In this document: piece after piece, positions 538-40,816 of the stretch | Layout: every line of letters starts with the position of its first letter | Position numbering within the stretch: position 1 is the stretch's first letter | IMG/VR virus record: IMGVR_UViG_3300022696_000117 | Coordinates: 1 to 64,000 of that record | Direction: 5' to 3' (one strand) | DNA length: 64,000 nt | Origin: a virus | The notes under the pieces: generated by a model | Databases searched by the model: none | What the model was told of the DNA's origin: nothing | The model's input: the letters and a program-made list of their open reading frames with translations, nothing else | Position numbers and translations under genes: made by a program

Positions 538-843
538 TTATTCTTCCGGGCTTGTGATCAGGCCGTTGTTGATTGCTTTTCTGATAATCTCCCTTCGGTG
601 GACCAACCCATACCGCTTGTCGTCGGCTTCGGACCACCCCGGAAGATCCCTGATGTCAAACATGTGGCTGTCAGAATCAAACATGGCGTCCGGATCTGTC
701 GTGTAGTGGTAGTCCATCCGCTGGCCCTCTTCGTCGTTCTTGTACGTGTGATAAACGCTGGTGTCGTTCTTGTACGTGTGATAAACGCTGGTGCCTGAAA
801 AAACCCAGAACAACTCAGGATCCACCCATTTATAAGGCATCAC
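538..843 (-). CDS. hypothetical protein with an in-frame 10-aa tandem duplication
   Basis: ORF coupled to its neighbour; TSVYHTYKND occurs twice. Confidence 0.7.
   Translation of the reverse strand: MMPYKWVDPELFWVFSGTSVYHTYKNDTSVYHTYKNDEEGQRMDYHYTTDPDAMFDSDSHMFDIRDLPGWSEADDKRYGLVHRREIIRKAINNGLITSPEE
733..792. repeat. perfect 30-bp tandem duplication
   Basis: gtcgttcttgtacgtgtgataaacgctggt at 733-762 and 763-792. Confidence 0.97.
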
Positions 844-1181
844 AACCTCCCTTTCATTTTGAGGGCGACATGCTTGGCCAGAACCTTCTGGCCCTGCTCG
901 CTCTCTTCGTCAATGTTCATCATTTCCAGCCACTGCCGGGGATGTTTCCTCTCGGAGACCCCGAAAATGGAGGCATACAAATACGGACTGTCTTCGTGGA
1001 GCTTCCTGGCAAAGGCCAGGGTCTCCACATGTCGGTAATAAGTGTGCGGGTCCCGGGCGGTCGGCGCCGGGACGTCGCGGAATAGACTCCGATAATAATC
1101 GTGCGGCCTCCAGCGGCCGGCCTGGTCTTTCTTGCCAAGCCGCCGGTGGGCGCCAGGCGGTAGCCGCTGTGGTTGATACAT
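840..1181 (-). CDS. hypothetical protein, C-terminus similar to 1181..1426
   Basis: Ends IDEESEQGQKVLAKHVALKMKG; overlapping start/stop coupling. Confidence 0.7.
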   Translation of the reverse strand: MYQPQRLPPGAHRRLGKKDQAGRWRPHDYYRSLFRDVPAPTARDPHTYYRHVETLAFARKLHEDSPYLYASIFGVSERKHPRQWLEMMNIDEESEQGQKVLAKHVALKMKGRL

Positions 1182-1426
1182 TATCTGCCTCCTTTCATCC
1201 TCCAGGCGACGTGTTGGGCGAGAATCTGTTTCGCTTCTTCGCCCTCCGGGTCTATGCCGGAGGCTTCTATGAAGAGGTTGGGAAACATGAACGGCTCGAC
1301 ATTGGAATACTTGAACAGGTTTCTTGTCACAGTTTTCATGGAGTGGCAGTTCGCGTATTCATTCATGAGGTGATTGGCTGAGACGTGGAACCTTTCAGCC
1401 AACCTCTGGATCAGCTTCCCGGTCAT
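1181..1426 (-). CDS. hypothetical protein, C-terminus similar to 840..1181
   Basis: Ends IDPEGEEAKQILAQHVAWRMKG; ATGA overlap with the AAA gene. Confidence 0.7.
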   Translation of the reverse strand: MTGKLIQRLAERFHVSANHLMNEYANCHSMKTVTRNLFKYSNVEPFMFPNLFIEASGIDPEGEEAKQILAQHVAWRMKGGR

Positions 1427-2445
1427 TCCTGCACCACCACATCCTTGTGTTTCACGGCCCACTCAATGAAGGCCCGGGTGTTAGTGATATCGCCGTTCTT
1501 CGTGACGGCGTCAGTGACCAGCAGGACCGAGAACTCCTCGGGCATGCGGTTGGCGTATCGAACGATTCGCCCGAAATTCTCCTCGTCGGCCTTGTGGCTC
1601 AGGGCACCACACAGAGCATAAAGGACCGGGATGTTTTCGGACTTGGCCATGTCAGGGACCGGCGCATTGTCCGGGTCCATAATGACCTTGTCGACGTTCG
1701 GCAGGTTTCGGTAGACCTTGAGGAAGCTCAGGAACTCAACGGCGAAGCCTTCGCCGGCGGCTCCTTTGTAGACCTCGAATTCCATGCCCTGGGGGACTCC
1801 GCCGTCCATCGACATCAGATCGCCGACGTTGTGGATCGTTCTCGGGCAGGGGCTGTTGACCAGCTCAAAAGTGGGCTGGAAATCGTGGAGTAAATTCGGC
1901 TTGAACCGCATGCAGGCGATCAGCTCTGTGGGGACGCCCTTCTTTAGTGCCCACACCACCCAATCGTTAAGGTCGGGTTCCAGCTCAACGATGGTCTTGA
2001 ACCTCGACTTTACCGGCTCAAGCATTCCGGTCACACCAGCCTTGTGCTGCTTGCGGTTGGTGGCACCGACGAATGCGACGTGTTCGGAGACCTTTTTCCC
2101 GTTGATCTCACGAGCAAGCAACGGCTGCATAAGCGCTTTCTGAACCGCAGGTTCCGCTTGGCCCACATCGTCAAAGAAGAACGCCGTCAGTTCGGATGCC
2201 TCGATCATCGACAGAAGTTCACCGAAGGGAAGGAATTCAGCCTTGCCATCGACAATGGCCGGCAGTCCCTTGTAGTCGGTGGGGTCGCTGATAACCGGGT
2301 GAGAGATGATGACGTTGGCCCCGACTGCTACGGCAGCCTGCTTTACGATGTCGGTCTTCCCGATGCCCGGGGCCCCCGCTACCAGAACGGGGTACTTGGC
2401 TTTGATGGTTGATTCGAGAAACATTTTCAATTGACTCGGTTTCAT
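1423..2445 (-). CDS. MoxR/dynein-related AAA+ ATPase
   Basis: Walker A GAPGIGKT, Walker B FFDD, sensor GATNR, SRF arginine finger, PCPRT. Confidence 0.88.
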   Translation of the reverse strand: MKPSQLKMFLESTIKAKYPVLVAGAPGIGKTDIVKQAAVAVGANVIISHPVISDPTDYKGLPAIVDGKAEFLPFGELLSMIEASELTAFFFDDVGQAEPAVQKALMQPLLAREINGKKVSEHVAFVGATNRKQHKAGVTGMLEPVKSRFKTIVELEPDLNDWVVWALKKGVPTELIACMRFKPNLLHDFQPTFELVNSPCPRTIHNVGDLMSMDGGVPQGMEFEVYKGAAGEGFAVEFLSFLKVYRNLPNVDKVIMDPDNAPVPDMAKSENIPVLYALCGALSHKADEENFGRIVRYANRMPEEFSVLLVTDAVTKNGDITNTRAFIEWAVKHKDVVVQE

Positions 2446-2490
2446 GTAGTCCTCCTTGGCTTTTTGTTTTTGGGTTCCAATTGGGAAAAA

Positions 2491-3021
2491 TCATGCCGCA
2501 GATCCGGCCAGGTCATTCCAAATTTGTTTGAGATGCCACTCTACGGTTTGCTCTTCGTCTTGGATTTGGAGACTTTCGACTGTCAAGCTGCCAGAGTCAA
2601 ATCTGTTATCCACGCAGTCATCATCGACTCCCTGGATAACGAACTCAACTTTTTTGGTATACAGGTTCCTGTGATATTTGACCCACGAATCATATTGGCG
2701 GTGTTCGTAACCATTCAGAAAGTCTGGAAGCGTTTCACTTAAAAGAAAACTGGCATCGTCAATTACATCTACAATTCTGGTTACAACCTCCTCTTCGTCG
2801 CTACCTTCGGCCGATGGGTCTGGATCGACATGGAAAAAGGTTACATAGGGGCCGTAAAAAGCAATTGATATGGGCTCAAGCGCGAACGCCTTCAGGACAT
2901 TCAGGGTCCCGGCTTCACGCCGGAAGTTTTTCATAACCTGCTCAGTAACATTAAACGCTCCCACGTTGGGGGCACCGGCCATTTCCGGGTTGTCAGGCCG
3001 GCAATAAAATATGCACCACAT
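2491..3021 (-). CDS. hypothetical protein
   Basis: 176-aa ORF with GGAGG RBS in a co-directional array. Confidence 0.65.
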   Translation of the reverse strand: MWCIFYCRPDNPEMAGAPNVGAFNVTEQVMKNFRREAGTLNVLKAFALEPISIAFYGPYVTFFHVDPDPSAEGSDEEEVVTRIVDVIDDASFLLSETLPDFLNGYEHRQYDSWVKYHRNLYTKKVEFVIQGVDDDCVDNRFDSGSLTVESLQIQDEEQTVEWHLKQIWNDLAGSAA

Positions 3022-3076
3022 AATCCCTCCCTGGTTCCCGCTTGGGGAAGTTCAGGGCGCAAAAATGGCCCTGGGT

Positions 3077-3637
3077 TTAAATTTTAAAGGGTAACCTGCT
3101 CACTATCTCAGAAGCTGTCTGGTCTCTTCTGATAGGCTCGGTCTTGAATTCGTATAATTCTCCGTTAAGCTCCGCCAGCATCCATCGACACCAGTCGAGC
3201 GTCAGGCCGAAATGGTCCTTGGCATTCACCGAATCCTCCCGTTCGATCATAACTTTTTTCACCTTTGAGTACCAGCCGGCCTGCTCTGCCCGGCCTCTCG
3301 CGTCCAGACGGTCCAGATATAGGATGGCTACGGCATGCTTGAGTTTTTCTATCACCTTCGGCATCTGTTTCAAGATGGCGTGTTCTGCATTTGAAACTGG
3401 ATGGATACGCAGCTCTGCCGAGACCAGGCTCCTGCTGAACTTGAATCTCAGCTTCTCTTTCGGCTCTCCGATAAAGTCCAGCACCCTAATTGTGATATCG
3501 AAATCCCCGAGTGCTCTGCCTTTGGTCAGAGAGACCCAGGTGAAGCTGTTGAGCTTTTGTATCGCCTCCCTGTTCGGAGTGATGCGATGTGCCACGACTA
3601 AGGCTGTGGCTACTTCCTTGACTCTTTGTGGGTTCAT
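3077..3637 (-). CDS. hypothetical protein
   Basis: 186-aa ORF with ATGA overlap. Confidence 0.65.
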   Translation of the reverse strand: MNPQRVKEVATALVVAHRITPNREAIQKLNSFTWVSLTKGRALGDFDITIRVLDFIGEPKEKLRFKFSRSLVSAELRIHPVSNAEHAILKQMPKVIEKLKHAVAILYLDRLDARGRAEQAGWYSKVKKVMIEREDSVNAKDHFGLTLDWCRWMLAELNGELYEFKTEPIRRDQTASEIVSRLPFKI

Positions 3638-4011
3638 TTGAACAATCCTTCCAGTTGTCTGGCGACGTTCTTTGCCAGGGCAGAATCGCTTGGCCAGGCT
3701 ACCATGATGTTTCCGGTAAGAAGATCCCTTGCTCCGTCATGTCGAGCTATGATCAGCATGGCTCGTTCGTGAACATAATAGGAGTGCCGCCGCAGCTTCA
3801 CGATGTATTTGCCGAACATGAATTCTACATAATCATCCGTGCCGGGCGCAGCCTTCATTTCGACCAAGGACGCCACCAGATATTCGGCCAGCTCATCGGC
3901 AGTTTCCACCACGCCATCAAGAACTATCCTCCCCACCGGCAACCCCATCCTGCGCTTGGCGGAGACATGCGCCACCATCTCATCCGGTGAGTTGTAGACC
4001 GGGTCGGTCAT
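3634..4011 (-). CDS. hypothetical protein, paralog family A
   Basis: YNSPDEMVAHV and VETADELAEYL motifs. Confidence 0.65.
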   Translation of the reverse strand: MTDPVYNSPDEMVAHVSAKRRMGLPVGRIVLDGVVETADELAEYLVASLVEMKAAPGTDDYVEFMFGKYIVKLRRHSYYVHERAMLIIARHDGARDLLTGNIMVAWPSDSALAKNVARQLEGLFK

Positions 4012-4307
4012 GAGTCCTCCTTTCCGAACACGTCGCCGAAATGGTTGATTAGGGCCTGGATTGTCCTTTCCCGGGCCTCCTCCAGGGTATGCCCCAACCC
4101 GTATCGCTTATACGTGACCTGGTATCTTGGTGGCCCCAGGTCATTTTTTATGTAAAGATCGAAGTGTATGTATTCGGCTCCGGTCAGCGGCGTAGCATCG
4201 AATTTGATCTCTTTGTACCTGAACCAAGTCTTAACAACCCGCGGCCTCCCGATCCTCCACATCACGATCAGGTGATCGGCCAGCTCTTCAGGGCTTTTGT
4301 AGTTCAT
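4008..4307 (-). CDS. hypothetical protein, paralog family A
   Basis: MNYKSPEELADHL; AGGAGG RBS. Confidence 0.65.
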   Translation of the reverse strand: MNYKSPEELADHLIVMWRIGRPRVVKTWFRYKEIKFDATPLTGAEYIHFDLYIKNDLGPPRYQVTYKRYGLGHTLEEARERTIQALINHFGDVFGKEDS

Positions 4308-4689
4308 GGCGCCTCCTGTTCCTCTGTTCAGACCTGTACCCCCTGGCATATTTGAAAGCCCATGCGATATCCTTCCTTAGCTTCGCGGCCAGCTCGGCAT
4401 GAAGGTCGGCGTTAGGAAGGCTAAACCTGCTGTACCGTTCTAAACTGTTGTGCTCGCCCCAAGTGGACGCCAAAGAGACAGGGGGCTCTTCGAGCCCGAC
4501 AGGCTTTGGTCTCACCAAGAGATCAAAGGATCTACTTATAGGATGGGGATAGCGCTGTAACATTATTACAACATCTCTGAACCTTACATGCACAAGCCCG
4601 CCGTGCGCCTCCGCCTTCCTGGCAGCCAAAAGCAGGTAGATTGCGAGTTCATCCACATTCTTGAATAAGTTCGGCTTCAGTGTCTCCAT
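4288..4689 (-). CDS. hypothetical protein, paralog family A
   Basis: FKNVDELAIYL motif. Confidence 0.6.
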   Translation of the reverse strand: METLKPNLFKNVDELAIYLLLAARKAEAHGGLVHVRFRDVVIMLQRYPHPISRSFDLLVRPKPVGLEEPPVSLASTWGEHNSLERYSRFSLPNADLHAELAAKLRKDIAWAFKYARGYRSEQRNRRRHELQKP

Positions 4690-5230
4690 CTTCTTCCTCC
4701 TCCTCCACGATCACGCCGATATCCACCAGGTAGGCGCGCTCCTCTTTCCACCAATCGTCAATATATTCGGCGGACCCCCTTACTGCCTTGTTCAGAGGCC
4801 GAAGGGCGCCGAGGAAGCGTTCGGCTTCTTTCAGGCCGTCGGAAGCATCGGTAGCATCATCGTCATCCTCTATGGAGTATGCGATAGCCTCCACGTTGAC
4901 GACCTTATCAACGTCGATGGTCGTTGAGTATCCCCGGCCTCGGACTCCATGGTATGAATATCCATCCGGGTAAAACGTGGCGCCCCTACTTCCATCCTGG
5001 TAGATATTCCAGTCGTATCCGTACTCATCCTTGATCCAGTCCTGGATATATTCGATCTCCTGCTCGATGTAATGGTATAAGCTGTTGTAGAAATGCTCCC
5101 ACTCGTCGTCATCCACTTCCGGCCAGAAAGCAGAGTACGATCCATTGTGATATACGTTTCTCCACTCCTCCTCAATCTCCGGGACCAACTCTTCCAGGAT
5201 TTTAAGGCAGGCGATTTGTCTTGCGTTCAT
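4649..5230 (-). CDS. highly acidic, aromatic-rich hypothetical protein
   Basis: 193 aa rich in D/E/Y/W; AAGGAGG RBS. Confidence 0.7.
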   Translation of the reverse strand: MNARQIACLKILEELVPEIEEEWRNVYHNGSYSAFWPEVDDDEWEHFYNSLYHYIEQEIEYIQDWIKDEYGYDWNIYQDGSRGATFYPDGYSYHGVRGRGYSTTIDVDKVVNVEAIAYSIEDDDDATDASDGLKEAERFLGALRPLNKAVRGSAEYIDDWWKEERAYLVDIGVIVEEEEEDGDTEAELIQECG

Positions 5231-5245
5231 GGTTCCTCCTTGGCT

Positions 5246-5530
5246 TCAGCAGAAGATGTATTCAATGGCGCTGTGGACTATATAAACACACGGCTGGCCC
5301 TTGAACTTGGACTTGTGGAAGCTCACCGCATAATCGTCTTTGATGTGGAAGTCGCAGGCTCCGGGCTTGTCCCTTTCGCCACGGTACGAATAGTCCGGGA
5401 ATATCTCTTCCACGTGTGGAGGCTTGACGTATTTTTTGAATGTCTTCCAGGTTATCTCCCGGCTGTTGTCGATCATTTCGTGAAGCGCCTCAACATCCTT
5501 GCATGAGACACAGTTGATTAAATATTTCAT
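5246..5530 (-). CDS. hypothetical phage protein
   Basis: 94-aa ORF with AAGGAGG RBS. Confidence 0.7.
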   Translation of the reverse strand: MKYLINCVSCKDVEALHEMIDNSREITWKTFKKYVKPPHVEEIFPDYSYRGERDKPGACDFHIKDDYAVSFHKSKFKGQPCVYIVHSAIEYIFC

Positions 5531-5728
5531 GGTTCCTCCTTGGCATTTTTCGGTTATAAATCATCACCACACTATGCTTTTAGCCTTTTCGGAGACGTCC
5601 GGCGGTAGCCGGGCGCCTCGGGAAGGGCTAAATCATGAAGCCCAGTCTTTTCTACTTTTTCGACTTTGGGGATATCTTCTGTCTTAAACGTCATTGTGAG
5701 ATGGCATCTGTCGCCCATATTACCTCCA

Positions 5729-5829
5729 GGTTACATCAGGTTACATTTTTACACTGAAAAATGTAACCTATGTTAAGTTAATAACCTCGGGCACTTACGG
5801 CCCGAGGTTACAAAGTTACAAAAGTTACA
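5729..5829. repeat. small GGTTACA/TGTAACC iteron cluster (satellite origin element)
   Basis: Six RGTTACA copies in an intergenic gap; the 21-mer at 5802-5822 is identical to 17945-17965. Confidence 0.8.
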
Positions 5830-5846
5830 AAAATTTTCGTAGATTT

Positions 5847-6170
5847 TTAGTGGAGCAAATCTCCGGCCCCGATCCGAACGAATTTCTCTTTAAGCTCGGG
5901 GTTGAGGCCCGGGTCGATGCCCTTTATGATGAGGTCGGTTTTCATGTCTTTCAGGTAATCGACGAACTCCTCTGCCGATTCGAACTCGGTCAGATTGACG
6001 TCACCCTCTGCGAACTCCACCACCTGAAGGGCTTCCGGGTTGCACCAGCTCCCATAATACCAGGCGTCCTGCCGGGTATCCACCTGCGCCCACCCTTTCT
6101 TGGTTGAGCAGAGGTTGAAGTCGAACTGGTAGCGGTCGCAGTCCGGGATGAACCAGTGTTGGGTTTTCAT
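5847..6170 (-). CDS. hypothetical phage protein
   Basis: 107-aa ORF, DRYQFDF...GWAQVDTRQDAWYYG. Confidence 0.7.
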   Translation of the reverse strand: MKTQHWFIPDCDRYQFDFNLCSTKKGWAQVDTRQDAWYYGSWCNPEALQVVEFAEGDVNLTEFESAEEFVDYLKDMKTDLIIKGIDPGLNPELKEKFVRIGAGDLLH

Positions 6171-6436
6171 GGCGTTTCCACCTCCCTACCAGGGTAATAG
6201 GCTATGGCTTCACCCTTTTCATCGAAATATTTGATGCTCCAGGTCGGGTGACAGTTGTGCTTACCCTTGCCCATCTTCAGGGTGTTGGTGAACTTCACGT
6301 CCAGATTGCAGGATGAATTCATACCGACGATGGTGCCGGGCTCACCGTCCACCTCCACCATCATCCCGAGCCTGGGAAAGGAGAGCCCCCGGCATCGCTG
6401 GATGTCTTCGATAAACTGCTTTTCTTTTTTGGTCAT
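6167..6436 (-). CDS. hypothetical protein (SH3-like pattern)
   Basis: GMMVEVDGEPGTIVG...LDVKF...CHPTW. Confidence 0.65.
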   Translation of the reverse strand: MTKKEKQFIEDIQRCRGLSFPRLGMMVEVDGEPGTIVGMNSSCNLDVKFTNTLKMGKGKHNCHPTWSIKYFDEKGEAIAYYPGREVETP

Positions 6437-6446
6437 GGCGTCTACC

Positions 6447-7598
6447 CTAAACCCGCATCGGCATAACGATCCCCTTGAAGGTCTCGTCGCCGCCGTTTAC
6501 GTGAATGGCATCATCGCTACCCCGACCGAATCCGAGGCAGGTCTTGCCGTTTTTCACGCCGGTCTTGATGGCGTGGATGAGCAGCTCTGCGTCTACGCCG
6601 ATCTCGAACGGTTCGTTCGGGATGCGGCCGTCACATTTGACGTCAGGCTTTTCGAACTCGCCGACGTCGGGGTTTGAGGAACGGAAGTTGATATTCTCCT
6701 CATTGATCGTCATGATCACACCTCGGTATGCTTTGGATCGGACCACAAGAGCCTGTTCCAGGGCCCTTTTCAGGTCGGCGGTGTTTACCTCGACGAAGTC
6801 GGTCCGGCTGAGGTCGTCGACCAGTGAATGGTATGTCGGGAAGTCCGAATCGAACGGCCTGGTGTAGACCGTGATCGGATCGGTGCCGTATTTGGCTCTC
6901 GGCTTGATGCTGAATCGGGACCAGCGCTCATAGGAATGGTCCAGAACCACCGACTCGGCCAGGAGCGCCACCTTTTTCAGGGTGGCCTTTTCGATTAGGA
7001 GCTGATCGTCGGTCAGGATTTCCAGAGGGACCGAATACAGGCAACTCCCGTCGGTGGACACCATTTGATTGTTGGGACCATCGAAATAGCAGGCGTTCGT
7101 GTGGGCCCGGGTGTCTTTCTCTTCTTGATAAAGCCCGGGCGGCATCCACATTTTCAGAACATCCGGCTTGTCGAGGTCCAACATTGTGAAGGTCTGGCCG
7201 ATCTCGGGCACATCCGGGAAGTCTTCGGGCGGCTGGACATGCAGGCCCCTATAGGGGCCGATCGCAAGCGAGACTTCGCGGTACGAGATCGATGTGTCTC
7301 CGATCTCGTCGGGCTTGACGTAGTGAGTCTCGAAATCCAGGCCGAGTTCAATTTCCGGATCTCCGGACTTCTTCAGGATGTCCAGCAGCATCTTCGGGTT
7401 GATGCAGCACCCGTCGTCTGAACCTGTGGCGTCCTTAATTTCTATCGGGACCAAACAGAAATTGGTCATGTCGGACCCGATCACCGCCTCGTGCTTCGCG
7501 GAGATACAGACGCTGTTGGTTACTGCCAGAGAGGTGCTTCCGGCAAACTTCTTGGCGATCTCGACAGCGTTGACGAGATCATTGCGATTGATTCGCAT
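6447..7598 (-). CDS. dnaN: DNA polymerase III beta (sliding clamp)-like protein
   Basis: 383 aa; MRINRNDL start, PEDFP, MVSTDG, FPTY, C-terminal IVMPMRV typical of beta clamps. Confidence 0.85.
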   Translation of the reverse strand: MRINRNDLVNAVEIAKKFAGSTSLAVTNSVCISAKHEAVIGSDMTNFCLVPIEIKDATGSDDGCCINPKMLLDILKKSGDPEIELGLDFETHYVKPDEIGDTSISYREVSLAIGPYRGLHVQPPEDFPDVPEIGQTFTMLDLDKPDVLKMWMPPGLYQEEKDTRAHTNACYFDGPNNQMVSTDGSCLYSVPLEILTDDQLLIEKATLKKVALLAESVVLDHSYERWSRFSIKPRAKYGTDPITVYTRPFDSDFPTYHSLVDDLSRTDFVEVNTADLKRALEQALVVRSKAYRGVIMTINEENINFRSSNPDVGEFEKPDVKCDGRIPNEPFEIGVDAELLIHAIKTGVKNGKTCLGFGRGSDDAIHVNGGDETFKGIVMPMRV

Positions 7599-7890
7599 GG
7601 GCTACTCCTTTTGTTTTTTGGGTTATTTTGGATCAGGGTTAAACAGGGTAGGGGGAAGAACCTTCGGAGCACAGCTTCAGAGGGAGTTAGCGGGGGCCAG
7701 GGCGACGGCCCCCGCAGCCAAGGAGCACAGCAGTTCGAGGTGAAGGTTCGCCCTCGTGAGCCCCGATTCGAGATCGAGGCTCAAGGCGGCGAGCCTTTGC
7801 GGGTTGAAATAAAAAGCCCCCGGGAGACAGCCCCCCAGGGGCCGGGCACCCAGGTAAACCGAATTGAAACCTGGGCGCCCTGTGATTGGT

Positions 7891-32619: not shown

Positions 32620-34363
32620 GCACCAGCAGGCTGCGGTTGAGGCATCGGAGCCCAGGGTCCTTGTCCGGGCCGGCGCAGGCTCCGGAAAGACTCGAGTTCT
32701 CACCGAGCGGATCGCATACCTGATCGAGGACCGTCAGGCAAGTCCGCACGAAATCATGGCCTTCACCTTCACCCGGAAAGCCGCCCAGGAAATGAAAGAA
32801 CGGCTCCTTGTGCGGGTCGGAAGCGCCGCCCACAAGATCGACATCGGTACATTCCATGCCGTGGGCCTCGATTTCATCCAACGCCATGCCGAAATGATCG
32901 GATTCAGGCAGGCGGTGACCGTATACGGTGAATGGGAAACCAACCACCTGATCGAAAGGGCCGCTGAGGCCCTGGGGTATAGGACAGGGAAGAAATGGAA
33001 GACACCGAAGAAGCTCATCGTGGATACGTTCAAGAGTTGCGATGAACGAGGCGAGGAGCCGGAACGGCTTCATCCGCTTCGGCCGCTTTTCGATTCCTTC
33101 ATGACGACATGCAGGTCGAACAACGCAATGCACTTCGGAGCCATTCTGGTGCATTTCAGGGACCTGATTCAGTGTATCAAGAATCTCTATCCCATCCAGT
33201 ATGTGTTGACCGACGAGGCTCAGGACAATGATGAGTTACAGTGGGAGATTTTGGAGCTTCTCCAGGAGCAATTCGGGGCGGAATTGTTTTGCGTTGGTGA
33301 TCCTGACCAGTCCATTTACGAATTCCGTGGCGCCGTTCCGCAATATCTGATCGAGCACCAGGACGATTTCGCCGTTTATGATCTTCCGGAGAACTATCGG
33401 TCTTTCAGGCCGATTGTGGAGGCGGCGAACAGCCTCATTGGGCACAATAGCGACCGTATCGGAAGCCCAATGTCCTGCGCCAGGGCCGGCGGTGATTCGA
33501 GCGCAAGCTTTGTGCTGGAGAATTTCGACAGCGCCGTTGTGGTGGAATATTTGAAGGCCCGGAAGCTGGAGCCATCCAGAACCGCAATCCTCGCCAGAAA
33601 TCATTTTCTTCTGATGAAACTCGCCAATATCATGGACGAGCAGGGGATCCACTACCATTATATCGGCAAAAAAAGCTCGATCACCAGGACCGAGGAGTTC
33701 CAACGATTTCACGCCTACATGAAGCTGTTGGTCAATCCGTATGACGACTTCTCATTCATGCTGGCATCCGAAGCCCTTGGTGTTTCTGTCGAACAGCTGA
33801 GGGCCCTGCGGCTGGAATCTACCCAAACAGGCGATGGGGCGTTCAGCATCTGGAGCCGGCAGGAGTTCAGCAGCCCCCCGAAATGGGTGGAGTTCTTTAA
33901 TACCGCCCACAAGGACAGCTGGAGCGTTTACCGAATTGCCGGCTTCATCCAGGACAACGGCGGCTTTGAAGACGATAAAGTCTGGCGGTTCGTCATGGAA
34001 TGGTTCGAGGCGAACCCGACCGAGAGCCTGGAGGAGTACCTTTATTGGGTTTCCACCTACGACATCCATGACGAGCTTGCAGACGACAGCAGCCAGGATT
34101 GCTATCAGCTGGCCACCATCCACGGCGCCAAGGGCCTCGAATGGCCCAACGTGATCATCGCCGGGGTGAACGAGGGCCTTTTGCCGTCGTCTCAGGCGAT
34201 TCGGTGCGGCGATATCGAGGGTGAGCGGCGGCTGATGTATGTGGCCATGACCCGGGCCGAAGAAAAGTTGATCCTTACGATCCGTCCGGAGGAGACCGTG
34301 AACGCCCGCGGGCAGGTGAACGTGAATCCTGTGAGCCGGTTTGTGGAGGAGGCGGGGTTATGA
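32588..34363 (+). CDS. UvrD/PcrA/Rep SF1 helicase
   Basis: AGAGSGKT, TFTRKAA, GTFHA, DEAQD, VGDPDQSIY.FRGA, NYRS, TIHGAKGLEW, YVAMTRA. Confidence 0.96.
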   Translation: MNITDKPQLNEHQQAAVEASEPRVLVRAGAGSGKTRVLTERIAYLIEDRQASPHEIMAFTFTRKAAQEMKERLLVRVGSAAHKIDIGTFHAVGLDFIQRHAEMIGFRQAVTVYGEWETNHLIERAAEALGYRTGKKWKTPKKLIVDTFKSCDERGEEPERLHPLRPLFDSFMTTCRSNNAMHFGAILVHFRDLIQCIKNLYPIQYVLTDEAQDNDELQWEILELLQEQFGAELFCVGDPDQSIYEFRGAVPQYLIEHQDDFAVYDLPENYRSFRPIVEAANSLIGHNSDRIGSPMSCARAGGDSSASFVLENFDSAVVVEYLKARKLEPSRTAILARNHFLLMKLANIMDEQGIHYHYIGKKSSITRTEEFQRFHAYMKLLVNPYDDFSFMLASEALGVSVEQLRALRLESTQTGDGAFSIWSRQEFSSPPKWVEFFNTAHKDSWSVYRIAGFIQDNGGFEDDKVWRFVMEWFEANPTESLEEYLYWVSTYDIHDELADDSSQDCYQLATIHGAKGLEWPNVIIAGVNEGLLPSSQAIRCGDIEGERRLMYVAMTRAEEKLILTIRPEETVNARGQVNVNPVSRFVEEAGL

Positions 34364-34635
34364 AGCAAGTATACAAATACATTCTTCGCCTTGATAGGCC
34401 TATCTGTGAAATACCAAAAGGCGGCACAATCCGCCATGTGGATGAGCAGCTCGGAAATATTTGCGTTTGGGTTGAAGTTGACCCTGATCAGCCAAAAGAG
34501 AAACGGCGCTTCGAGATTTACGGGACAGGCCATACGATTAGAGAAGATATGGGCGTAACCCGTGTGTACCTTGGTTCCGTGAAGCTTGAAGGTGGTGCGC
34601 TCATTTTTCATATTTATGAGCACACCGGTATATAA
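34360..34635 (+). CDS. conserved small phage protein
   Basis: VYKY.L...P.G...W..VDP....R.F.IYGTGH. Confidence 0.65.
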   Translation: MKQVYKYILRLDRPICEIPKGGTIRHVDEQLGNICVWVEVDPDQPKEKRRFEIYGTGHTIREDMGVTRVYLGSVKLEGGALIFHIYEHTGI

Positions 34636-34658
34636 TCCAGGACACTCGAGCGTACAGA

Positions 34659-36056
34659 ATGAAACTCACCATCTCCAACTACCTCCAGCTCTACGGCCAC
34701 CCGATGGAGTTGGAGAAGCACCTCACCAGGCTCCTCACCATCCAGAACCCGAGGTGGCTTGACAACGAGAAGATGAACCGGTGGCAGGGCAATACCGCTC
34801 GATTCCTGACCTATTTCCACACCGACGGCCTCGGGACGATGTCCGTACCCCGGGGCCTGGCCGTGCATGTCTGGAGGTGGTGCAAGGATCATGGGGCAGA
34901 GGTTGAGGTTGAGGATAAACGGGCGTCTTTTCCTGGTCTCAACATCAACTTCATGGGCCGCGGCCTTCGGCAATATCAGGTAGAAGCCGCGGAGGCCGTC
35001 CTGAAAAGAGACGCGGGGGTCCTCTGCGCTCCGACCGGGTCCGGAAAGACCGTCATGGCGCTTTATCTGATTGCAAAAAGGGACCAACCGACGGTCATAG
35101 TGGTCCACACGAAGGACCTGGCCAACCAATGGATAGACCGCATAGGCCAGTTCCTCGGAATAGACGCCGGAGATATCGGACTGATCGGGGCTGGCAAGAA
35201 GACCGTCAATCCGAATGGCCTAAATGTGGCCCTGGTTCAAACCCTGTACGGCTGCGCCGATGAAATCGCATCCCATATCGGCCATCTCGTGGTTGACGAA
35301 TGCCACCGGGCCCCGAGCCGGACTTTCAACGAGGCCGTAACCGCGTTCTCATCCAAGTACATTCTCGGCCTCACAGCCACCCCGTTCCGCCGGGACAAAA
35401 TGACCAACCTGATTTATTGGTTTCTCGGTGATCAGGTCCATAAAATAGAGCCGGACGGCCTTCGAGAAGACGGGCACATTCTCACCGCGGATGTGGTGGT
35501 CCGCAAAACCGACTTCAAGGCGTATTCCGACCCTAAGAACGAATACGCCAAGATGCTCTCGGAGCTGTCTTCTGATCTCCACAGGAACCGCATGATCGTT
35601 CAAGACGTGGCCGACATCGTAAACTCCGAAGAAGAGGGCGTGTGCCTGGTCCTGTCAGACAGGAAAGAGCACTGCGAGATCCTGAAGTCGGCGATTACCA
35701 CCGAAAAGAAGATCCCGGCGGTCGTTCTTACCGGAGACACGCCGAATAAGCAGCGAGAAATGATCATCGACATGGTCAACCGCGGGGCGGTGCCGGTTGT
35801 GGTGGCCACCGGGCAGCTCATCGGCGAAGGGTTCGACTGCAAGAACCTGACGAACCTTTTTTTGGCCATGCCGATCAAGTTCTCAGGGCGCCTGATCCAG
35901 TATCTCGGCCGGGTGCTTCGGCCTGCGCCGGGCAAGGAGCGGGCGCTTATCTATGACTACGAGGATGCCAAGGTGGGTGTTCTCCGCAATTCCGCCTCCG
36001 GGCGGAGGAGGGTGTATAGGCAAAATGGATTTTCGATCACAAGAGAGGGAGCTTGA
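34659..36056 (+). CDS. SF2 DExH helicase (ResIII/UvsW-like)
   Basis: LRQYQ, APTGSGKT, VVDECH, GLTATPFR, GEGFD, QYLGRVLR. Confidence 0.95.
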   Translation: MKLTISNYLQLYGHPMELEKHLTRLLTIQNPRWLDNEKMNRWQGNTARFLTYFHTDGLGTMSVPRGLAVHVWRWCKDHGAEVEVEDKRASFPGLNINFMGRGLRQYQVEAAEAVLKRDAGVLCAPTGSGKTVMALYLIAKRDQPTVIVVHTKDLANQWIDRIGQFLGIDAGDIGLIGAGKKTVNPNGLNVALVQTLYGCADEIASHIGHLVVDECHRAPSRTFNEAVTAFSSKYILGLTATPFRRDKMTNLIYWFLGDQVHKIEPDGLREDGHILTADVVVRKTDFKAYSDPKNEYAKMLSELSSDLHRNRMIVQDVADIVNSEEEGVCLVLSDRKEHCEILKSAITTEKKIPAVVLTGDTPNKQREMIIDMVNRGAVPVVVATGQLIGEGFDCKNLTNLFLAMPIKFSGRLIQYLGRVLRPAPGKERALIYDYEDAKVGVLRNSASGRRRVYRQNGFSITREGA

Positions 36057-36432
36057 ACTGTTTGCGCCTCCGGATTACTGGACGATGCCGGTGGAGGCGC
36101 TGAAGGAAATAGCCGGTGGGTGCGGCGCAGGCAGGGGGCTTGGCGATACGCTGGTTCCGGATACCGCCTGGGGGTTATCGATCAAGCCGGCCTGCAAAAT
36201 CCACGATTTCATGTACCATTTCGGCGAATGCCTGGAAGACAAAAAGGCTGCGGACAGGGTGTTTTTGAACAATATGATCAGGATTATCGAGGCAAGAACG
36301 AGGTTCTCCTTTTTGGCACGGCTCCGCCTTCAGCGGTGCAGAACCTATTTCTTCTTCGTCAAATATTTAGGTGGGCCGGCATTCTGGAAACGCAAAAATC
36401 CCGACGCAACAATCGGAAAGGTAGCCGCATAA
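36025..36432 (+). CDS. phospholipase-A2-like / DUF1353-related small protein; start uncertain
   Basis: GCG...VPD....I.PACKIHDFMY......K..ADRVF. Confidence 0.55.
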   Translation: MDFRSQERELELFAPPDYWTMPVEALKEIAGGCGAGRGLGDTLVPDTAWGLSIKPACKIHDFMYHFGECLEDKKAADRVFLNNMIRIIEARTRFSFLARLRLQRCRTYFFFVKYLGGPAFWKRKNPDATIGKVAA

Positions 36433-36686
36433 TGGAGTTGAGTCTGCACGAAATGGACACACTGGTCGACATGATCGCCGAGAGGGTCGCCCAAAAGCTG
36501 GAAGCCAGGCTTTCACCCGGGAAGTGGCTGACGTTCGAGGAAGCCATGCGGATGATGAAGATCAAGTCAAAAGACACCCTCCGGAAGCGATTGATCGATG
36601 GTGACGTATACGGGATCAAGGACGGGGGGAAGTGGAAGGTTGATCGGGAATCTATCGAGGATTATTTGAATCAGGAGAGGGTATGA
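36432..36686 (+). CDS. excisionase-like HTH protein
   Basis: WLTFEEA......SKDTLRK.L..G...G.K.GGKWKVDRESI. Confidence 0.8.
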   Translation: MELSLHEMDTLVDMIAERVAQKLEARLSPGKWLTFEEAMRMMKIKSKDTLRKRLIDGDVYGIKDGGKWKVDRESIEDYLNQERV

Positions 36687-36744
36687 CGTGCCGGGGGGGG
36701 TGTTCTCGGCTAATATCAGGGAAGTTTTACCTGTTAATCAATGG

Positions 36745-37134
36745 TTATACTTTTATACAAGAAAGGGATTAATTATGTACAATATTGAACAGATGGGCAT
36801 GATAACGGAAAGAGAATGCGAACCTGATTATAAAAAGGTCGCTGAAGTCAAGGAAAAAGAGCTTGATTTGATTTCGGATTTGATTTCTAACCTTTGTTTA
36901 TTTGCCGATATGGTCGGCACACATGGGTTCAGAGATGCACACGGCAGAAATATGTTTCATGAGTTTTTGGGCACTCTGTCCCTTGACAAAAGGAATCGTG
37001 AGAAACAGTTGGAAGAGTTGAATAGTCGTATAGAAAAAAAAGTATAACCCAGCGATGAACACGGACAAGCAGGGCATCGCTTTTGTAGCAGATTCATAAT
37101 CACCGGTTGCCCTGCTTGCCGGTTATCTATTACG
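36745..37134 (+). mobile_element. integron-type gene cassette (ORF plus attC) without a linked IntI
   Basis: Left core G|TTATACTTTT (36744-36754) is the reverse complement of AAAAGTATAAC (37038-37048); attC 37042-37140; AT-rich ORF. Confidence 0.78.
36775..37047 (+). CDS. cassette-borne hypothetical protein (90 aa, helical)
   Basis: ATG after AAAGGGA; stop TAA lies inside the R'' box. Confidence 0.7.
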   Translation: MYNIEQMGMITERECEPDYKKVAEVKEKELDLISDLISNLCLFADMVGTHGFRDAHGRNMFHEFLGTLSLDKRNREKQLEELNSRIEKKV

Positions 37135-37140
37135 TTAAAA
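37042..37140 (+). other. attC recombination site
   Basis: R'' GTATAAC, 5-nt spacer, L'' GATGAAC with one unpaired base, stem AAGCAGGGCA/TGCCCTGCTT, L' GTTATC, 6-nt spacer, R' GTTAAAA. Confidence 0.8.
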
Positions 37141-37150
37141 AAGAGGCATA

Positions 37151-37375
37151 ATGGCCGAGATAAAGCTATGCGCTACGACTAAGGATGGTCCGTCCATGCC
37201 AAGTGACCTGTCGGCTTGGACAGCGGACGAACCCTGGCCGGGTGGAGGCACCGTCAAGGTTTTGAAGTTTGGCATCGGAGATTCCACAATTACAATCTGG
37301 CCGGCTGACCCGGACAAAATTCATAATCTTAGCGCCAGGCTTTCCAAGATCGCTTATGAGCTGAAAGGGGGGTAG
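37151..37375 (+). CDS. hypothetical protein
   Basis: ORF with GAGG RBS just after attC. Confidence 0.55.
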   Translation: MAEIKLCATTKDGPSMPSDLSAWTADEPWPGGGTVKVLKFGIGDSTITIWPADPDKIHNLSARLSKIAYELKGG

Positions 37376-37534
37376 GGCGAATGACCTTCGAAGAATGGCT
37401 CCGCACCCTCCCGGATGAATATCCTGCGGAGGGGTACATTTGCGGCTTACTGCGGATGGCTTGGAATGCGGCCCTTTCCGAAAACGGTCATGAGTCCTTG
37501 ACCAACCCCCACAACCCTGATAACTCAGTCTCTA

Positions 37535-38578
37535 ATGAAAGCGAGACTGTGGAAAAGAAATAACGGCCAGTATTATGCCCTGTGGGAGGAGGATGGGCGG
37601 ACCCGGCAGAAGTCCCTTAAAACCGACTCCCTCAAAATAGCCAACCGGCGGTTGAAAAACTTCAACCGGGATCTGCTGGCCGGCAGCGTCAAGAAGCTCT
37701 CCCAGACAGTCCCGAAGGTCACCCTCGGCGAGCTTCGGGAAGCCTTCCTCAAATTCAAAGACGGCAGGGTGGCCAAAACCACCCTTGCCATCTACGAAAC
37801 CTCTTTTGATCACGCAGAAAAAACCCTCGGGGAAGATATCCCCATTACGCACATCACACAAAAGCGCCTGGAGCAGGTCATGGACGACATGATGGCGTCC
37901 GGGCTCAAGCCTCCGACCGTCAACAAGCACCGACGGCACCTGCGGACGGTTTTCAACCAGGCCTACGATTGGAACTATCTGGAGAAGCCGATCAAGATGC
38001 CTAAGCCTCTGCGAGAGGAGGAGCGTCTCCGGTTCCTGTCAATCGATGAACTCAGAAAGCTCATCGATTGCATCGACGATCAGGAGTTTTTCGACTTCTG
38101 CATGTTGTCGGCCTACACCGGAATGAGATCCGGGGAGCTTCTGAGAATGATGCGGGGCCACGTCGACCGGCCGGAGGGTTTTCTATTGGTCACCTCTGAA
38201 CAGAAAAACAAGGCGGACTGGATTATCCCGATCAATGACCATGCGAGGGAGATCCTGGACAGGTGCCTTTCCAGAAATCACGGACCGAGAGTGTTTCCTA
38301 AATGGCGGCTGGAGTGGGTTTCGAAGAAATTCAAGAAATATGCGAGGAAGTCAGGCTTGAAAGATTGTCGGTTCCATGATCTGAGGCATACCTTTGCAAG
38401 CCACCTTGCAATGGGTGGCCAGGATCTCCTGGTCATTCAGATGCTCATGCGCCACAAGTCCATGTCGTCGACGATGGTGTACGCCAAGCTGTCTCCAGAA
38501 CACCTTTCCAGGGCCAGCAACAGCCTTAACTTCGGCCCGATGCCGATACCTTCCACGAAGAAGGACGGCAAGGCATAA
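37535..38578 (+). CDS. int: tyrosine integrase
   Basis: TGMRSGEL (R), QKNK (K), FHDLRHTFAS (HxxR), MRH, TMVYA (Y). Confidence 0.96.
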   Translation: MKARLWKRNNGQYYALWEEDGRTRQKSLKTDSLKIANRRLKNFNRDLLAGSVKKLSQTVPKVTLGELREAFLKFKDGRVAKTTLAIYETSFDHAEKTLGEDIPITHITQKRLEQVMDDMMASGLKPPTVNKHRRHLRTVFNQAYDWNYLEKPIKMPKPLREEERLRFLSIDELRKLIDCIDDQEFFDFCMLSAYTGMRSGELLRMMRGHVDRPEGFLLVTSEQKNKADWIIPINDHAREILDRCLSRNHGPRVFPKWRLEWVSKKFKKYARKSGLKDCRFHDLRHTFASHLAMGGQDLLVIQMLMRHKSMSSTMVYAKLSPEHLSRASNSLNFGPMPIPSTKKDGKA

Positions 38579-38630
38579 TGGAACCCAAAGTGGAAAGCAT
38601 CCCCCAAAACAGCTGCTTCCAAGGTCTGTT

Positions 38631-38936
38631 TTTGCAATATCTTTGCAATGCCCAGAGATTGTGTTTCCATTGCAAATCCATTGCAAAATTTTTCCTATTG
38701 CAAAAACCTCTCAGATGGCTTACCGTAAATGACTGAATTGAGGGGTTATTTTTGGTACGCCCGGCAGGATTCGAACCTGCGGCCTACGGATTAGAAGTCC
38801 GTTCCAGCCCACAGCTGAAAACCCCGCAATTTCAAGTAATTCCCTAAAAATCAGACCCTTGTAAAGCTTTCCCGGATGGGTAAAATGGACTAAAACGGGC
38901 CATTTCGGGCTCATTTTTCATTGCAAAACATTGCAA
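38631..38936. repeat. integrase arm-type sites flanking the att core
   Basis: TTGCAA/CATTGCAA repeats at ~38631-38650, ~38668-38705 and ~38919-38936. Confidence 0.7.
38753..38803 (-). other. attP core: 3' half of tRNA-Arg(UCU)
   Basis: ACGGA-CTTCTAA-TCCGT anticodon arm, GCAGG-TTCGAAT-CCTGC T arm, CGGGCGTA-CCA; no D arm or 5' acceptor strand; 175 bp downstream of int. Confidence 0.9.
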
Positions 38937-38980
38937 TTCTACCCAAACGGGTAAAGTAAAGGATACCAGCCAGGAATAAA

Positions 38981-40816
38981 ATGGCCAAGTTCAACGCAGC
39001 GTATCGCAACGGCGGGGAGGGAATGACCCAATGGGTTGAGGATTTCGTTCGGATGCCGATCTATCCGGAGGGCAGCCCTATTCCAGTTTGGGTTCCCATG
39101 AACGACCTGCCTCAAGAGCCCAATCTCGACACCGGAAGGTCATACCAGACGATATGGGACGCACAGAAAGACATCCTCCACGAGGCCCTCGCCATGAAAA
39201 ACGGCCGGTTCATCCACCGGCTGATCGTCCTGTGCTGGATGCGTGGCGAAGGAAAGACCGTCATAGGGCCCTGCCTGATCAATCTGTGGAAATTCATGAA
39301 CTGGCCCAGGCAGAACATTGTCCTCGGAGCCAACTCCAAAGATCAGACCAAGTTCATCACTTTCGATATCATCCGTGACATGATTCTGAACAGCCCCAAC
39401 CTGCTTGCGTTGGTCGGCAAGAAGAATATCCGGGAAAAAGAGATCCGGCTGAGAGACGCAAAAGGCAACGTCGTGTCAACCATCAGAGCTGTCTCATCTT
39501 TTTCCGGCATCCTGTCGAACATCACCGGGTACGCTTTCAGCGAAATCTTTCAGATGAACAACCCGGAATTTTTCCAGCAGATCGACGGATCCATCCGAAA
39601 TGTTCCCAACGCGATGGGCGTCATCGACTCCACAGTGTCATCGAAGGACCATATCCTGTACCAGCTCTACGAAGCCGATCGTGACGGCCAGGACCCGACC
39701 ATCTATTTTTCATACCGGTGCTCTCACGATGGCGACTATCGAGATTACTGGCATCCCAACCAGAATCAGAGTCAGCTTGACTCATATCGGGTGAAGTTCA
39801 AGGCAGGCAACGGGTTCAAGCGGTATTTTCAGAACCTGTGGTCTGCCGGCTCCGAAAAGTTTTTTCCGGAAGAGATCATCGAGGCATCCTATTATGTCGG
39901 TCTCTATGGGCGACCGAACGATTTCAACGGAATCAAGGAGCAGATATCCAGAATACATGGACTCAGGCGGGAGATTGATGCTTTTGCCAAAAAGGATGTC
40001 GAGCTTGCTGATTTCAAAATCAGATTCGAGGTCGCCCGAAAAGAGCTTCAACCGGTTGAGGACATCTACCAGCTTGGTACGACCCAGGGCCTCCCGCGGC
40101 ATTGTTCAATCGATGAGCTGGAGGATCTCTCCGACTTTTTCGATACCGATTGGGCCATCGCCGCCGGCATCGACCGGGCCGACCCGGGAAAGACCAGGAC
40201 CGGGGCAAGAACCATGCTGTCCGTGGTAGGCAAGGGCATGATCGGCAGCCGATCCAATCCGCATCTCTGGACCTCGATTGCCAAGGACTATATCTATTGC
40301 GTCCTCCATGTGGCCGACATCGCAGATCATAGTTTGGTCGGCATCAAAGCCGAAATCCTGAAATGCCACGAGGAATATGAAGGGGTGGATCTGGTATCGT
40401 CAGAACGATTCGGGCTTTGGGATCTGAAGGAGTGGGGTGAGGAGAACGACATACGGTTCGACCTGATATACCCGACCTTCGATCGCCAGAAGGACGCCTT
40501 CTACGAGTTTTTCCGGATCATGGATTCGGGCCGGCTCAAGATGCCGCGAGTGTATGTCCCGGGGTCCCGGAGTTCGGACATTCTCCGCGAGGAGCTATCA
40601 ATGTTCGAGAGCGAAATCAGATCAGAGACGCAGGGCTGGTTCGGTTCTCCTGAAAAGAAAAAGATGAAAGGCGTCCAGGACGATTTGGTCTTTGCAATGG
40701 CGTGGGCCGTCTACGGCGCCAGGGTTCTCACCGTAGACGACTTTCGGGGCAGGGGGGCAAAGGTTGAGTTCGGGGATTCTATTTCTCCGAGGGGATTGCT
40801 CGGAGCGTATGCTTGA
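38981..40816 (+). CDS. terL: terminase large subunit
   Basis: Q motif (WDAQK), Walker A WMRGEGKT, GANSKDQT, motif III DST, nuclease GIDRAD...QDDLVFAMAWA. Confidence 0.85.
   Translation: MAKFNAAYRNGGEGMTQWVEDFVRMPIYPEGSPIPVWVPMNDLPQEPNLDTGRSYQTIWDAQKDILHEALAMKNGRFIHRLIVLCWMRGEGKTVIGPCLINLWKFMNWPRQNIVLGANSKDQTKFITFDIIRDMILNSPNLLALVGKKNIREKEIRLRDAKGNVVSTIRAVSSFSGILSNITGYAFSEIFQMNNPEFFQQIDGSIRNVPNAMGVIDSTVSSKDHILYQLYEADRDGQDPTIYFSYRCSHDGDYRDYWHPNQNQSQLDSYRVKFKAGNGFKRYFQNLWSAGSEKFFPEEIIEASYYVGLYGRPNDFNGIKEQISRIHGLRREIDAFAKKDVELADFKIRFEVARKELQPVEDIYQLGTTQGLPRHCSIDELEDLSDFFDTDWAIAAGIDRADPGKTRTGARTMLSVVGKGMIGSRSNPHLWTSIAKDYIYCVLHVADIADHSLVGIKAEILKCHEEYEGVDLVSSERFGLWDLKEWGEENDIRFDLIYPTFDRQKDAFYEFFRIMDSGRLKMPRVYVPGSRSSDILREELSMFESEIRSETQGWFGSPEKKKMKGVQDDLVFAMAWAVYGARVLTVDDFRGRGAKVEFGDSISPRGLLGAYA

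Follow-up and report, generated by a model that had tools for sequence, protein, structure and literature searches.

A lone integron gene cassette, probably inserted by a host integron integrase, between the excisionase-like and integrase genes of an uncultured temperate phage

What is the AT-rich unit that separates an excisionase-like gene from the integrase gene of an uncultured temperate phage, and how did it come to lie there? The DNA analysed here (the window) is the first 64 kb, or 64,000 nucleotides, of an 82,155-bp virus record in IMG/VR (IMGVR_UViG_3300022696_000117) that is classed as linear and ~75% complete. Around the unit all genes lie on the + strand, in the order of two helicases, a 159-aa protein, the excisionase-like gene, the AT-rich unit, ORF74, ORF60 and the integrase (Table 1). 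An integron gene cassette is an ORF, usually promoterless, followed by its attC site, with TT at its start and the crossover G at its end. A complete integron consists of intI, attI and Pc, and a CALIN of at least two clustered attC sites.

Table 1. Coordinates of the cassette, its attC site and the neighbouring phage features (positions in the window; a slash marks the crossover point)
Feature	Position	Strand	Evidence or remark
HTH_17 excisionase-like DNA-binding protein, 84 aa	36432–36686	+	PF12728 32.5 bits; phrog_66 'excisionase and transcriptional regulator'
Left junction	36743–36754	+	phage GG, then cassette start TTATACTTTT, equal to the outer part of the cassette's own R'
Gene cassette unit, 390 bp	36745–37134	+	starts with TT of the left G/TT, ends with G of the right G/TT
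ORF90, 90 aa	36775–37047	+	ATG 36775; stop TAA 37045–37047; ribosome-binding site AAAGGGA 36762–36768
attC site, 99 nt	37042–37140	+	folds, rule-based scan, covariance models R1 and R2, arm motifs
attC R'' GTATAAC	37042–37048	+	contains the ORF90 stop codon
attC left spacer, 5 nt	37049–37053	+	unpaired
attC L''	37054–37060	+	bulged G37057
attC bulged A37061, CGG, bulged A37065	37061–37065	+	CGG at 37062–37064
attC stem, 11 bp	37066–37076 with 37108–37118	+	
attC loop, 31 nt	37077–37107	+	
attC return arm, CCG and L'	37119–37121 and 37122–37127	+	no bulges
attC right spacer, 6 nt	37128–37133	+	unpaired
attC R'	37134–37140	+	
Right junction, hybrid R' GTTAAAA	37134–37140	+	G from the cassette, TTAAAA from the phage target
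ORF74, phage gene just downstream of the cassette	37151–37375	+	homologues P0015 (83% identity) and P0016 (60%), Logan assemblies
ORF60, phage gene after ORF74	37381–37563	+	
Phage tyrosine integrase	37535–38578	+	PF00589 83.8 bits; phrog_1 238.5 bits; TIGR02249 32 bits (cut-off 265)
tRNA 3' part, anticodon loop reads Arg-TCT	38756–38818	-	Rfam tRNA 32.7 bits; within a 400-bp non-coding stretch after the integrase

The preliminary description, made from the letters and their open reading frames, had placed a complete integron cassette at 36744–37140. Structure, covariance model and sequence homology agree on a complete cassette between the excisionase-like gene and the integrase; its features were all present and only its limits were slightly corrected, the unit spanning 36745–37134 and the attC site 37042–37140. 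The unit consists of one ORF, ORF90, whose stop codon lies inside R'', and it begins with TT and ends with G. Its GC content is 39.7%, against 54–55% in both flanks, and the absence of a promoter that had been described held as well: promoter- and terminator-like matches in 36300–37700 were near shuffle background (three promoter-like matches against a mean of 1.1, s.d. 1.0), the sole coding-strand promoter-like match upstream of ORF90 (9/12) overlapped the start codon, and no convincing sigma-70 promoter or intrinsic terminator was found in or around the cassette.

The two ends of the unit fit together as would be expected of a circular cassette recombined at G/TT. Positions 36743–36754 and 37038–37049 form a perfect 12-nt inverted repeat, and the last G of the cassette (G37134) joined to its first six bases (36745–36750) is the exact reverse complement of R'', so that the upstream core first noticed as complementary to the R'' side proved complementary over the whole heptamer. 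In the circular form of the cassette the R box is 11 bp long and the bottom strand is predicted to fold at −26.4 kcal mol−1 into the textbook attC shape. Deletion of 36745–37134 in silico left the spacer GG/TTAAAA with the ribosome-binding site and the start of ORF74 intact, and thus reproduced the restored G/TT spacer expected from the first reading of the sequence. The left junction reads GG/TT; as a target, GTT conforms to the GWT consensus reported for attG sites. An alternative delimitation, that of an element with terminal inverted repeats bounded by the 12-nt repeat, was rejected, as the right breakpoint of related phages lies 85 nt past the repeat, at the end of the attC site.

As defined by Nivina et al. 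2016 (PMC5027507), attC sites carry R'' and R' cores with conserved AAC and GTT (R'' being RYYYAAC-like and R' GTTRRRY-like), unpaired spacers of 5–6 nt, and extrahelical bases at position 16, sometimes 20, and 23 or 24. There are 6 bp from the first to the last extrahelical base, the first being usually a bottom-strand G and the last a conserved bottom-strand T, while the terminal structure is variable and total length ranges from 57 to 141 nt (PMC5027507). The candidate site, at 99 nt, has spacers of 5 and 6 nt, an L region of 3+3+3 bp and bulges at positions 16, 20 and 24 (G37057, A37061 and A37065), which the bottom strand reads as C, T and T. R'' and R' pair, with a third base that is off the strict R/Y consensus, as it is in several real control sites; the first bulge is a bottom-strand C (top G37057) rather than the usual G, and sites in the control arrays also vary there. 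In geometry the site matches VCR2 and attC-oxa2 as described in PMC5027507, and its bulge layout is the same as in real Vibrio and Shewanella attCs. The hairpin was better than all of 200 shuffles on both strands (z of −3.2 and −3.3), in keeping with the fold with unpaired bases that had been pointed out.

The site was then sought by rules and by models built on unrelated attCs. A scanner coded from the geometry in PMC5027507 and run over both strands of the 82-kb record returned exactly one site, 37042–37140, and in 60 dinucleotide-shuffled genomes it returned 0.05 hits each, with inner stems of 4–6 bp against 11 in the candidate. Positive controls were the records MK672802, MZ568829 and MH445380, phages reported to carry true integrons (Qi et al. 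2023, PMC9892861). The inner-stem rule was relaxed once, as a perfect inner stem had missed real Vibrio attCs; the relaxed scanner recovered Vibrio-type, Shewanella-type and class 1 attCs in the control loci (L005, L006 and L008), where the sites found share the 5-nt left spacer and the bulge spacing with the candidate, and it still gave one hit in the phage under study. A very relaxed version was too noisy and was dropped.

Covariance model R1 was built from 24 real attCs and rebuilt as R2 from 41 real sites aligned to R1, the training sites being Vibrio, Shewanella and class 1 attCs only. R1 picked up further attCs, untrained, in the control arrays. With its filters off, it ranked the candidate top in a 14-kb stretch (19.0 bits, E of 0.011), at full length and with the predicted ends exactly; with default filters it missed the candidate. 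R2 scored the candidate at 23.2 bits (E of ~0.004 in the 64-kb window), again over the full length and with exact ends, where the next best hit reached 9.2 bits; both models are home-made and short-calibrated, so that these E-values are rough and 23 bits is a moderate score. Beyond the window, over the last 18 kb of the record, nothing scored with R2, and in 86 kb of integron-free phage DNA used as a negative control the best R2 hit was 15.8 bits. The check by an attC model, which could have exposed the site as noise, thus came out in its favour. At the left junction R2 found no attI- or attC-like features. A remnant attC at that junction had been considered and was discarded, the resemblance being weak and by eye only, with no model hit.

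A search by arm sequence related the site to those of bacteria. The arm pattern fixes 25 bases but places no constraint on the spacers, the central stem, the loop or the bulged bases at positions 16 and 20; its chance expectation is ~0.07 matches in 596 Gb. It matched 50 bacterial genome loci and two IMG/VR viral contigs, all of them attC-like, and both viral contigs are cassette arrays by model R2. Most bacterial matches fall in a 90-nt repeat that is conserved in Pirellulaceae and other Planctomycetota; further families occur in Nitrosomonas, Burkholderiales, Casimicrobiaceae, Ectothiorhodospiraceae, Rokubacteria and others. An integron integrase above the TIGR02249 cut-off (431–492 bits) was present in five of five genomes tested, and at three loci (L050, L051 and L030) it lies 1–3 kb from the matched site, within the same 8-kb locus. 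At L050 and L051 the IntI gene and the attC site are on opposite strands, which is the canonical integron arrangement.

The L box and bulge layout of the candidate, GAT-N-AAC-N-CGG ... CCGGTTATC, also occurs in chromosomal integron attCs of Burkholderiales-type Betaproteobacteria, of Gammaproteobacteria and of Pirellulaceae; with the Burkholderiales-type sites the candidate has in common, besides, a left-arm 14-mer that includes all three bulged bases and a right-arm 10-mer. These arm motifs are common to the attCs of IntI-bearing bacteria, a kinship in sequence that places the candidate among the attC families on which real integrons rely. In its stem, loop and R box, however, the candidate is AT-richer than, and unlike, all 50 bacterial sites (46% GC for the candidate, against 47–71% in the related sites scored by R2), and thus no single donor lineage can be named.

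Several observations were made along the way on the bacterial and viral loci. The 90-nt repeat is near-identical across Novipirellula, Rhodopirellula, Stieleria, Rubripirellula, Aporhodopirellula and Pirellula (L012–L061), with a close 91-nt variant in a Gimesia MAG, and Novipirellula sp. SH528 encodes three full IntI genes. One of the two viral contigs (L062, in IMG/VR provirus G002, positions 576–7645) is a temperate phage with an integrase gene at 576–1694, followed on the + strand by an array of ~7 to 10 same-family attCs (3194–6447) and then, on the minus strand, by an ssb and an exonuclease gene. Small ORFs lying between these attCs also use the minus strand and are thus reversed relative to the attC orientation but co-oriented with the phage early genes; no IntI is encoded in the record. 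The other contig (L064/L010, in IMG/VR G001) has at least eight same-family attCs on one strand, at ~1000–5700 of a 16-kb 'viral' contig; this could be an array carried by a phage or a piece of a bacterial integron entered among the viruses.

The integrase that neighbours the cassette was read at the outset as a phage enzyme rather than IntI, and profile scores bear this out (Table 1). When three real IntI proteins were compared with it by tblastn, the match was confined to the catalytic C-terminal motif. Over the whole 82-kb record IntI was absent: TIGR02249, with its cut-off of 265, gave no more than 32 and 29 bits. Outside the window lies another tyrosine recombinase gene (G000:C1:78231–78785, minus strand), which scored 28.8 bits with TIGR02249 and is likewise not an integron integrase. 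With one attC and no IntI in the record, the locus is neither an integron nor a CALIN and is best described as a lone cassette.

Related phages bear on the limits of the unit. Only two public runs contain small shares of the region (0.07 and 0.05), and their habitat label, hypersaline lake, hints at a salt-lake origin of the phage. Aligned on 34000–40000, they yielded short contigs 83–95% identical to the phage. A 422-nt contig matches 36694–36746 and is then <80% alike for 366 nt; a 266-nt contig matches 37134–37239 and is, leftward, unlike the window (<80%) for 153 nt. With identity in the left flank at no more than ~83% and an alignment threshold of 80%, the left breakpoint looks sharper than it is. 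Judged from these alignments, the breakpoints fall on both predicted crossover triplets, which supports a discrete unit. The preliminary description had expected relatives with a precise empty site: the breakpoints at 36746 and 37134 are where it would have them, but the empty site was not found, and in the two hypersaline-lake runs (34000–40000) no relative contig spans the cassette or shows an empty-site joint. Between the junctions the relatives carry unlike sequence rather than a clean deletion, which could be a diverged copy, a different cassette or a fast-evolving region; a diverged copy is possible because P0002 is 76% identical to ORF90 and the ORF74 homologue 83% identical to ORF74.

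Searches further afield added little. Viral scans with the integrase, the excisionase-like protein, ORF74, the ORF90 pair and P0015 gave no close relative, ORF74 was not found in 53 genomes of the order of G008, and the scans returned no second genomic context for the cassette. An ORF74 homologue in one IMG/VR contig (L009) has no cassette before it and is translationally coupled to another upstream gene, from which it follows only that ORF74 and the cassette do not form a conserved module.

The reading that we favour, at a probability of roughly 0.68, is that 36745–37134 is a genuine and complete cassette that was inserted by the IntI of a host at a secondary, or attG, G/TT of the phage. From the G/TT junctions we infer the insertion step, which would have run as follows. 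The temperate phage would reside or replicate in a bacterium with an active integron, whose IntI would recombine the folded bottom strand of the attC of a circular cassette with a plain G/TT in the phage, namely in the spacer between the excisionase-like gene and ORF74, which would serve as a secondary or 'attG' site. The cassette would end up in the orientation of the phage operon and be transcribed by read-through from upstream. With its attC intact, it could, in a host with IntI, be excised again or be joined by further cassettes, and the phage could then carry it between cells.

Such a cassette might also have entered without IntI acting on the phage, by illegitimate or homologous recombination with a bacterial or phage array. 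Mosaicism is common in phages, arrays of same-family attCs exist in other viral contigs, and off-target or illegitimate recombination has been raised for attC clusters by Qi et al. 2023 (PMC9892861). Yet exactly one unit was moved, with both ends at a G/TT crossover, where random breakpoints would rarely fall; no leftover of a neighbouring attC gave a model hit on the left, and once the unit is removed the target is a simple GTT. Entry of this kind is accordingly held to be distinctly unlikely. That the unit is an ordinary phage moron with a terminator-like hairpin, its likeness to attC being coincidental, is very improbable. A phage moron is an accessory gene flanked by its own promoter and terminator, and here nothing of either kind rises beyond background; moreover, the geometry is that of an attC, the scores are significant with models built from other, unrelated attCs and the arm sequences match attCs beside IntI genes, all of which outweighs the facts that small AT-rich genes beside int are typical of morons and that attC sites can act as weak terminators (PMC9892861).

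The main alternative, itself a variant of the favoured reading, would make the G/TT a standing dock of the phage lineage, at which the cassettes or arrays of relatives are swapped by host IntI via the resident attC and where the present cassette would be the occupant of the moment. It would account for relatives of the two runs that diverge exactly at 36746 and 37134, for the lack of an empty-site joint in those runs, and for the 7 to 10 same-family attCs that in G002 (L062) separate the integrase gene from those for ssb and the exonuclease. The unlike sequence, however, could be a diverged orthologue (P0002, 76% identical to ORF90; closest ORF74, 83%), only one attC is present here, and the left junction lacks attI- or attC-like features by the model, so that a dock is thought unlikely. 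In more general terms, temperate phages of integron-bearing hosts might keep an attC-bounded 'cassette slot' beside the integrase that host IntI reloads; we offer this as a rather doubtful idea, under which the G/TT by ORF74 would be a recurrent dock, filled with different cassettes in related phages, and the G002 array its expanded form. Should it be true, host integrons would supply accessory genes to phages, possibly for counter-defence, and phages would be a regular shuttle of cassettes.

Insertion by a host IntI at a secondary site, as favoured above, has a laboratory counterpart. Loot et al. (bioRxiv 10.1101/2022.09.11.507474) reported that cassettes insert at minimal genomic GWT sites, termed 'attG', and earlier work on insertion at secondary sites is cited in PMC4889954. 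The phage locus resembles such insertions in having a single cassette with an intact attC outside an integron, a GTT target and a crossover at G/TT; judging by its sequence, the neighbouring genes are undamaged and the cassette should in principle be excisable by IntI. The events of Loot et al. took place in the laboratory, in the chromosomes of E. coli and V. cholerae and with class 1 and Vibrio cassettes, whereas the present one is natural, concerns an uncultured temperate phage and an environmental cassette, and is known from sequence alone.

Phages with attCs, CALINs and integrons have been described by Qi, Rajabal, Ghaly, Tetu and Gillings 2023 (PMC9892861), who showed that phage attCs are substrates of IntI1 and proposed a route of cassette transfer. 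In their survey, which counted only elements with two or more attCs, 21 of 10,705 phages were positive. The lone cassette would fail this two-attC filter and, unlike those elements, sits in the excisionase–integrase module and not in an array, with both junctions clean enough for the insertion event to be read. Cury et al. 2016 (PMC4889954) set aside 431 isolated single attCs as indistinguishable from false positives. The present site is likewise a single attC far from any integron integrase, but it is backed by the complementarity of the cassette start, the foreign GC content, the breakpoints of relatives and the identity of its arms to those of attCs next to IntI genes.

The locus is thus a clean natural example that links phage attCs, attG insertion and lone attCs, all three of which are published, and it reveals no new mechanism. 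A single attC can be validated by its own anatomy, that is, by start complementarity, bulge spacing, kinship with IntI-adjacent sites and breakpoints. Lone cassettes, if this one is read correctly, occur in temperate phages as the laboratory 'attG' route predicts, and a natural case would be added to the proposal that integron cassettes travel between bacteria in phages. At 390 bp and with one gene of 90 aa, the unit is also a small and well-bounded substrate for testing cassette transfer by phages.

With no promoter of its own and the same orientation as the phage genes around it, ORF90 would be expressed by read-through from upstream. The cassette might also, as first suggested, tune read-through from the excisionase-like gene into the integrase gene, or encode a defence function. 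Its homologues, of ~90 aa, came from metagenome assemblies only, on short contigs; P0002 is the closest of them, and eight more single-stretch matches share 31–43% identity. AlphaFold confidently predicts a hairpin of two helices behind a disordered N-terminus (pLDDT of 82). Against Pfam, PHROG, PADLOC, PDB sequences and two fold libraries ORF90 gave nothing significant, the fold and profile searches yielding only non-specific matches to helical hairpins (E of at least 0.4). No match was found among plasmids and phages by tblastn, a genome scan with the ORF90 pair was empty, and so were the metagenome scans with ORF90 and with P0002.

Downstream of the integrase, the non-coding stretch at 38579–38980 that precedes the terminase gene holds the 3' part of a tRNA without its 5' half (Table 1). 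ARAGORN found no complete tRNA there, the 5' half being missing, and metagenome contigs continue from this piece into true tRNA 5' halves. As only the 3' part and no whole tRNA is present, the piece looks like the attP core, and it is probably that of a temperate phage; judging by the missing 5' half, the record also looks like the phage in its circular or excised state, attP lying in mid-contig. Many metagenome contigs pile up on the piece because it matches host tRNAs. Compared with the five IntI-bearing genomes, the tRNA fragment had a best match of 88% identity. The gene after the tRNA stretch is read as a putative large terminase subunit; it has no Pfam family, and a tblastn search of phages with it gave no match.

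A few minor features of the spacer and of the two small phage genes may be recorded. What are here two ORFs, ORF74 and ORF60, with a stop codon and 5 nt between them, correspond to a single fused 119-aa protein in P0015, a close relative from a Logan assembly; ORF60 overlaps the integrase start by 29 nt. A 13-nt inverted repeat (36704–36716 and 37148–37160; 85% complementary) flanks the cassette on both sides, and its arms, now 431 nt apart, would in the cassette-free spacer be ~40 nt apart and able to pair over the start of ORF74.
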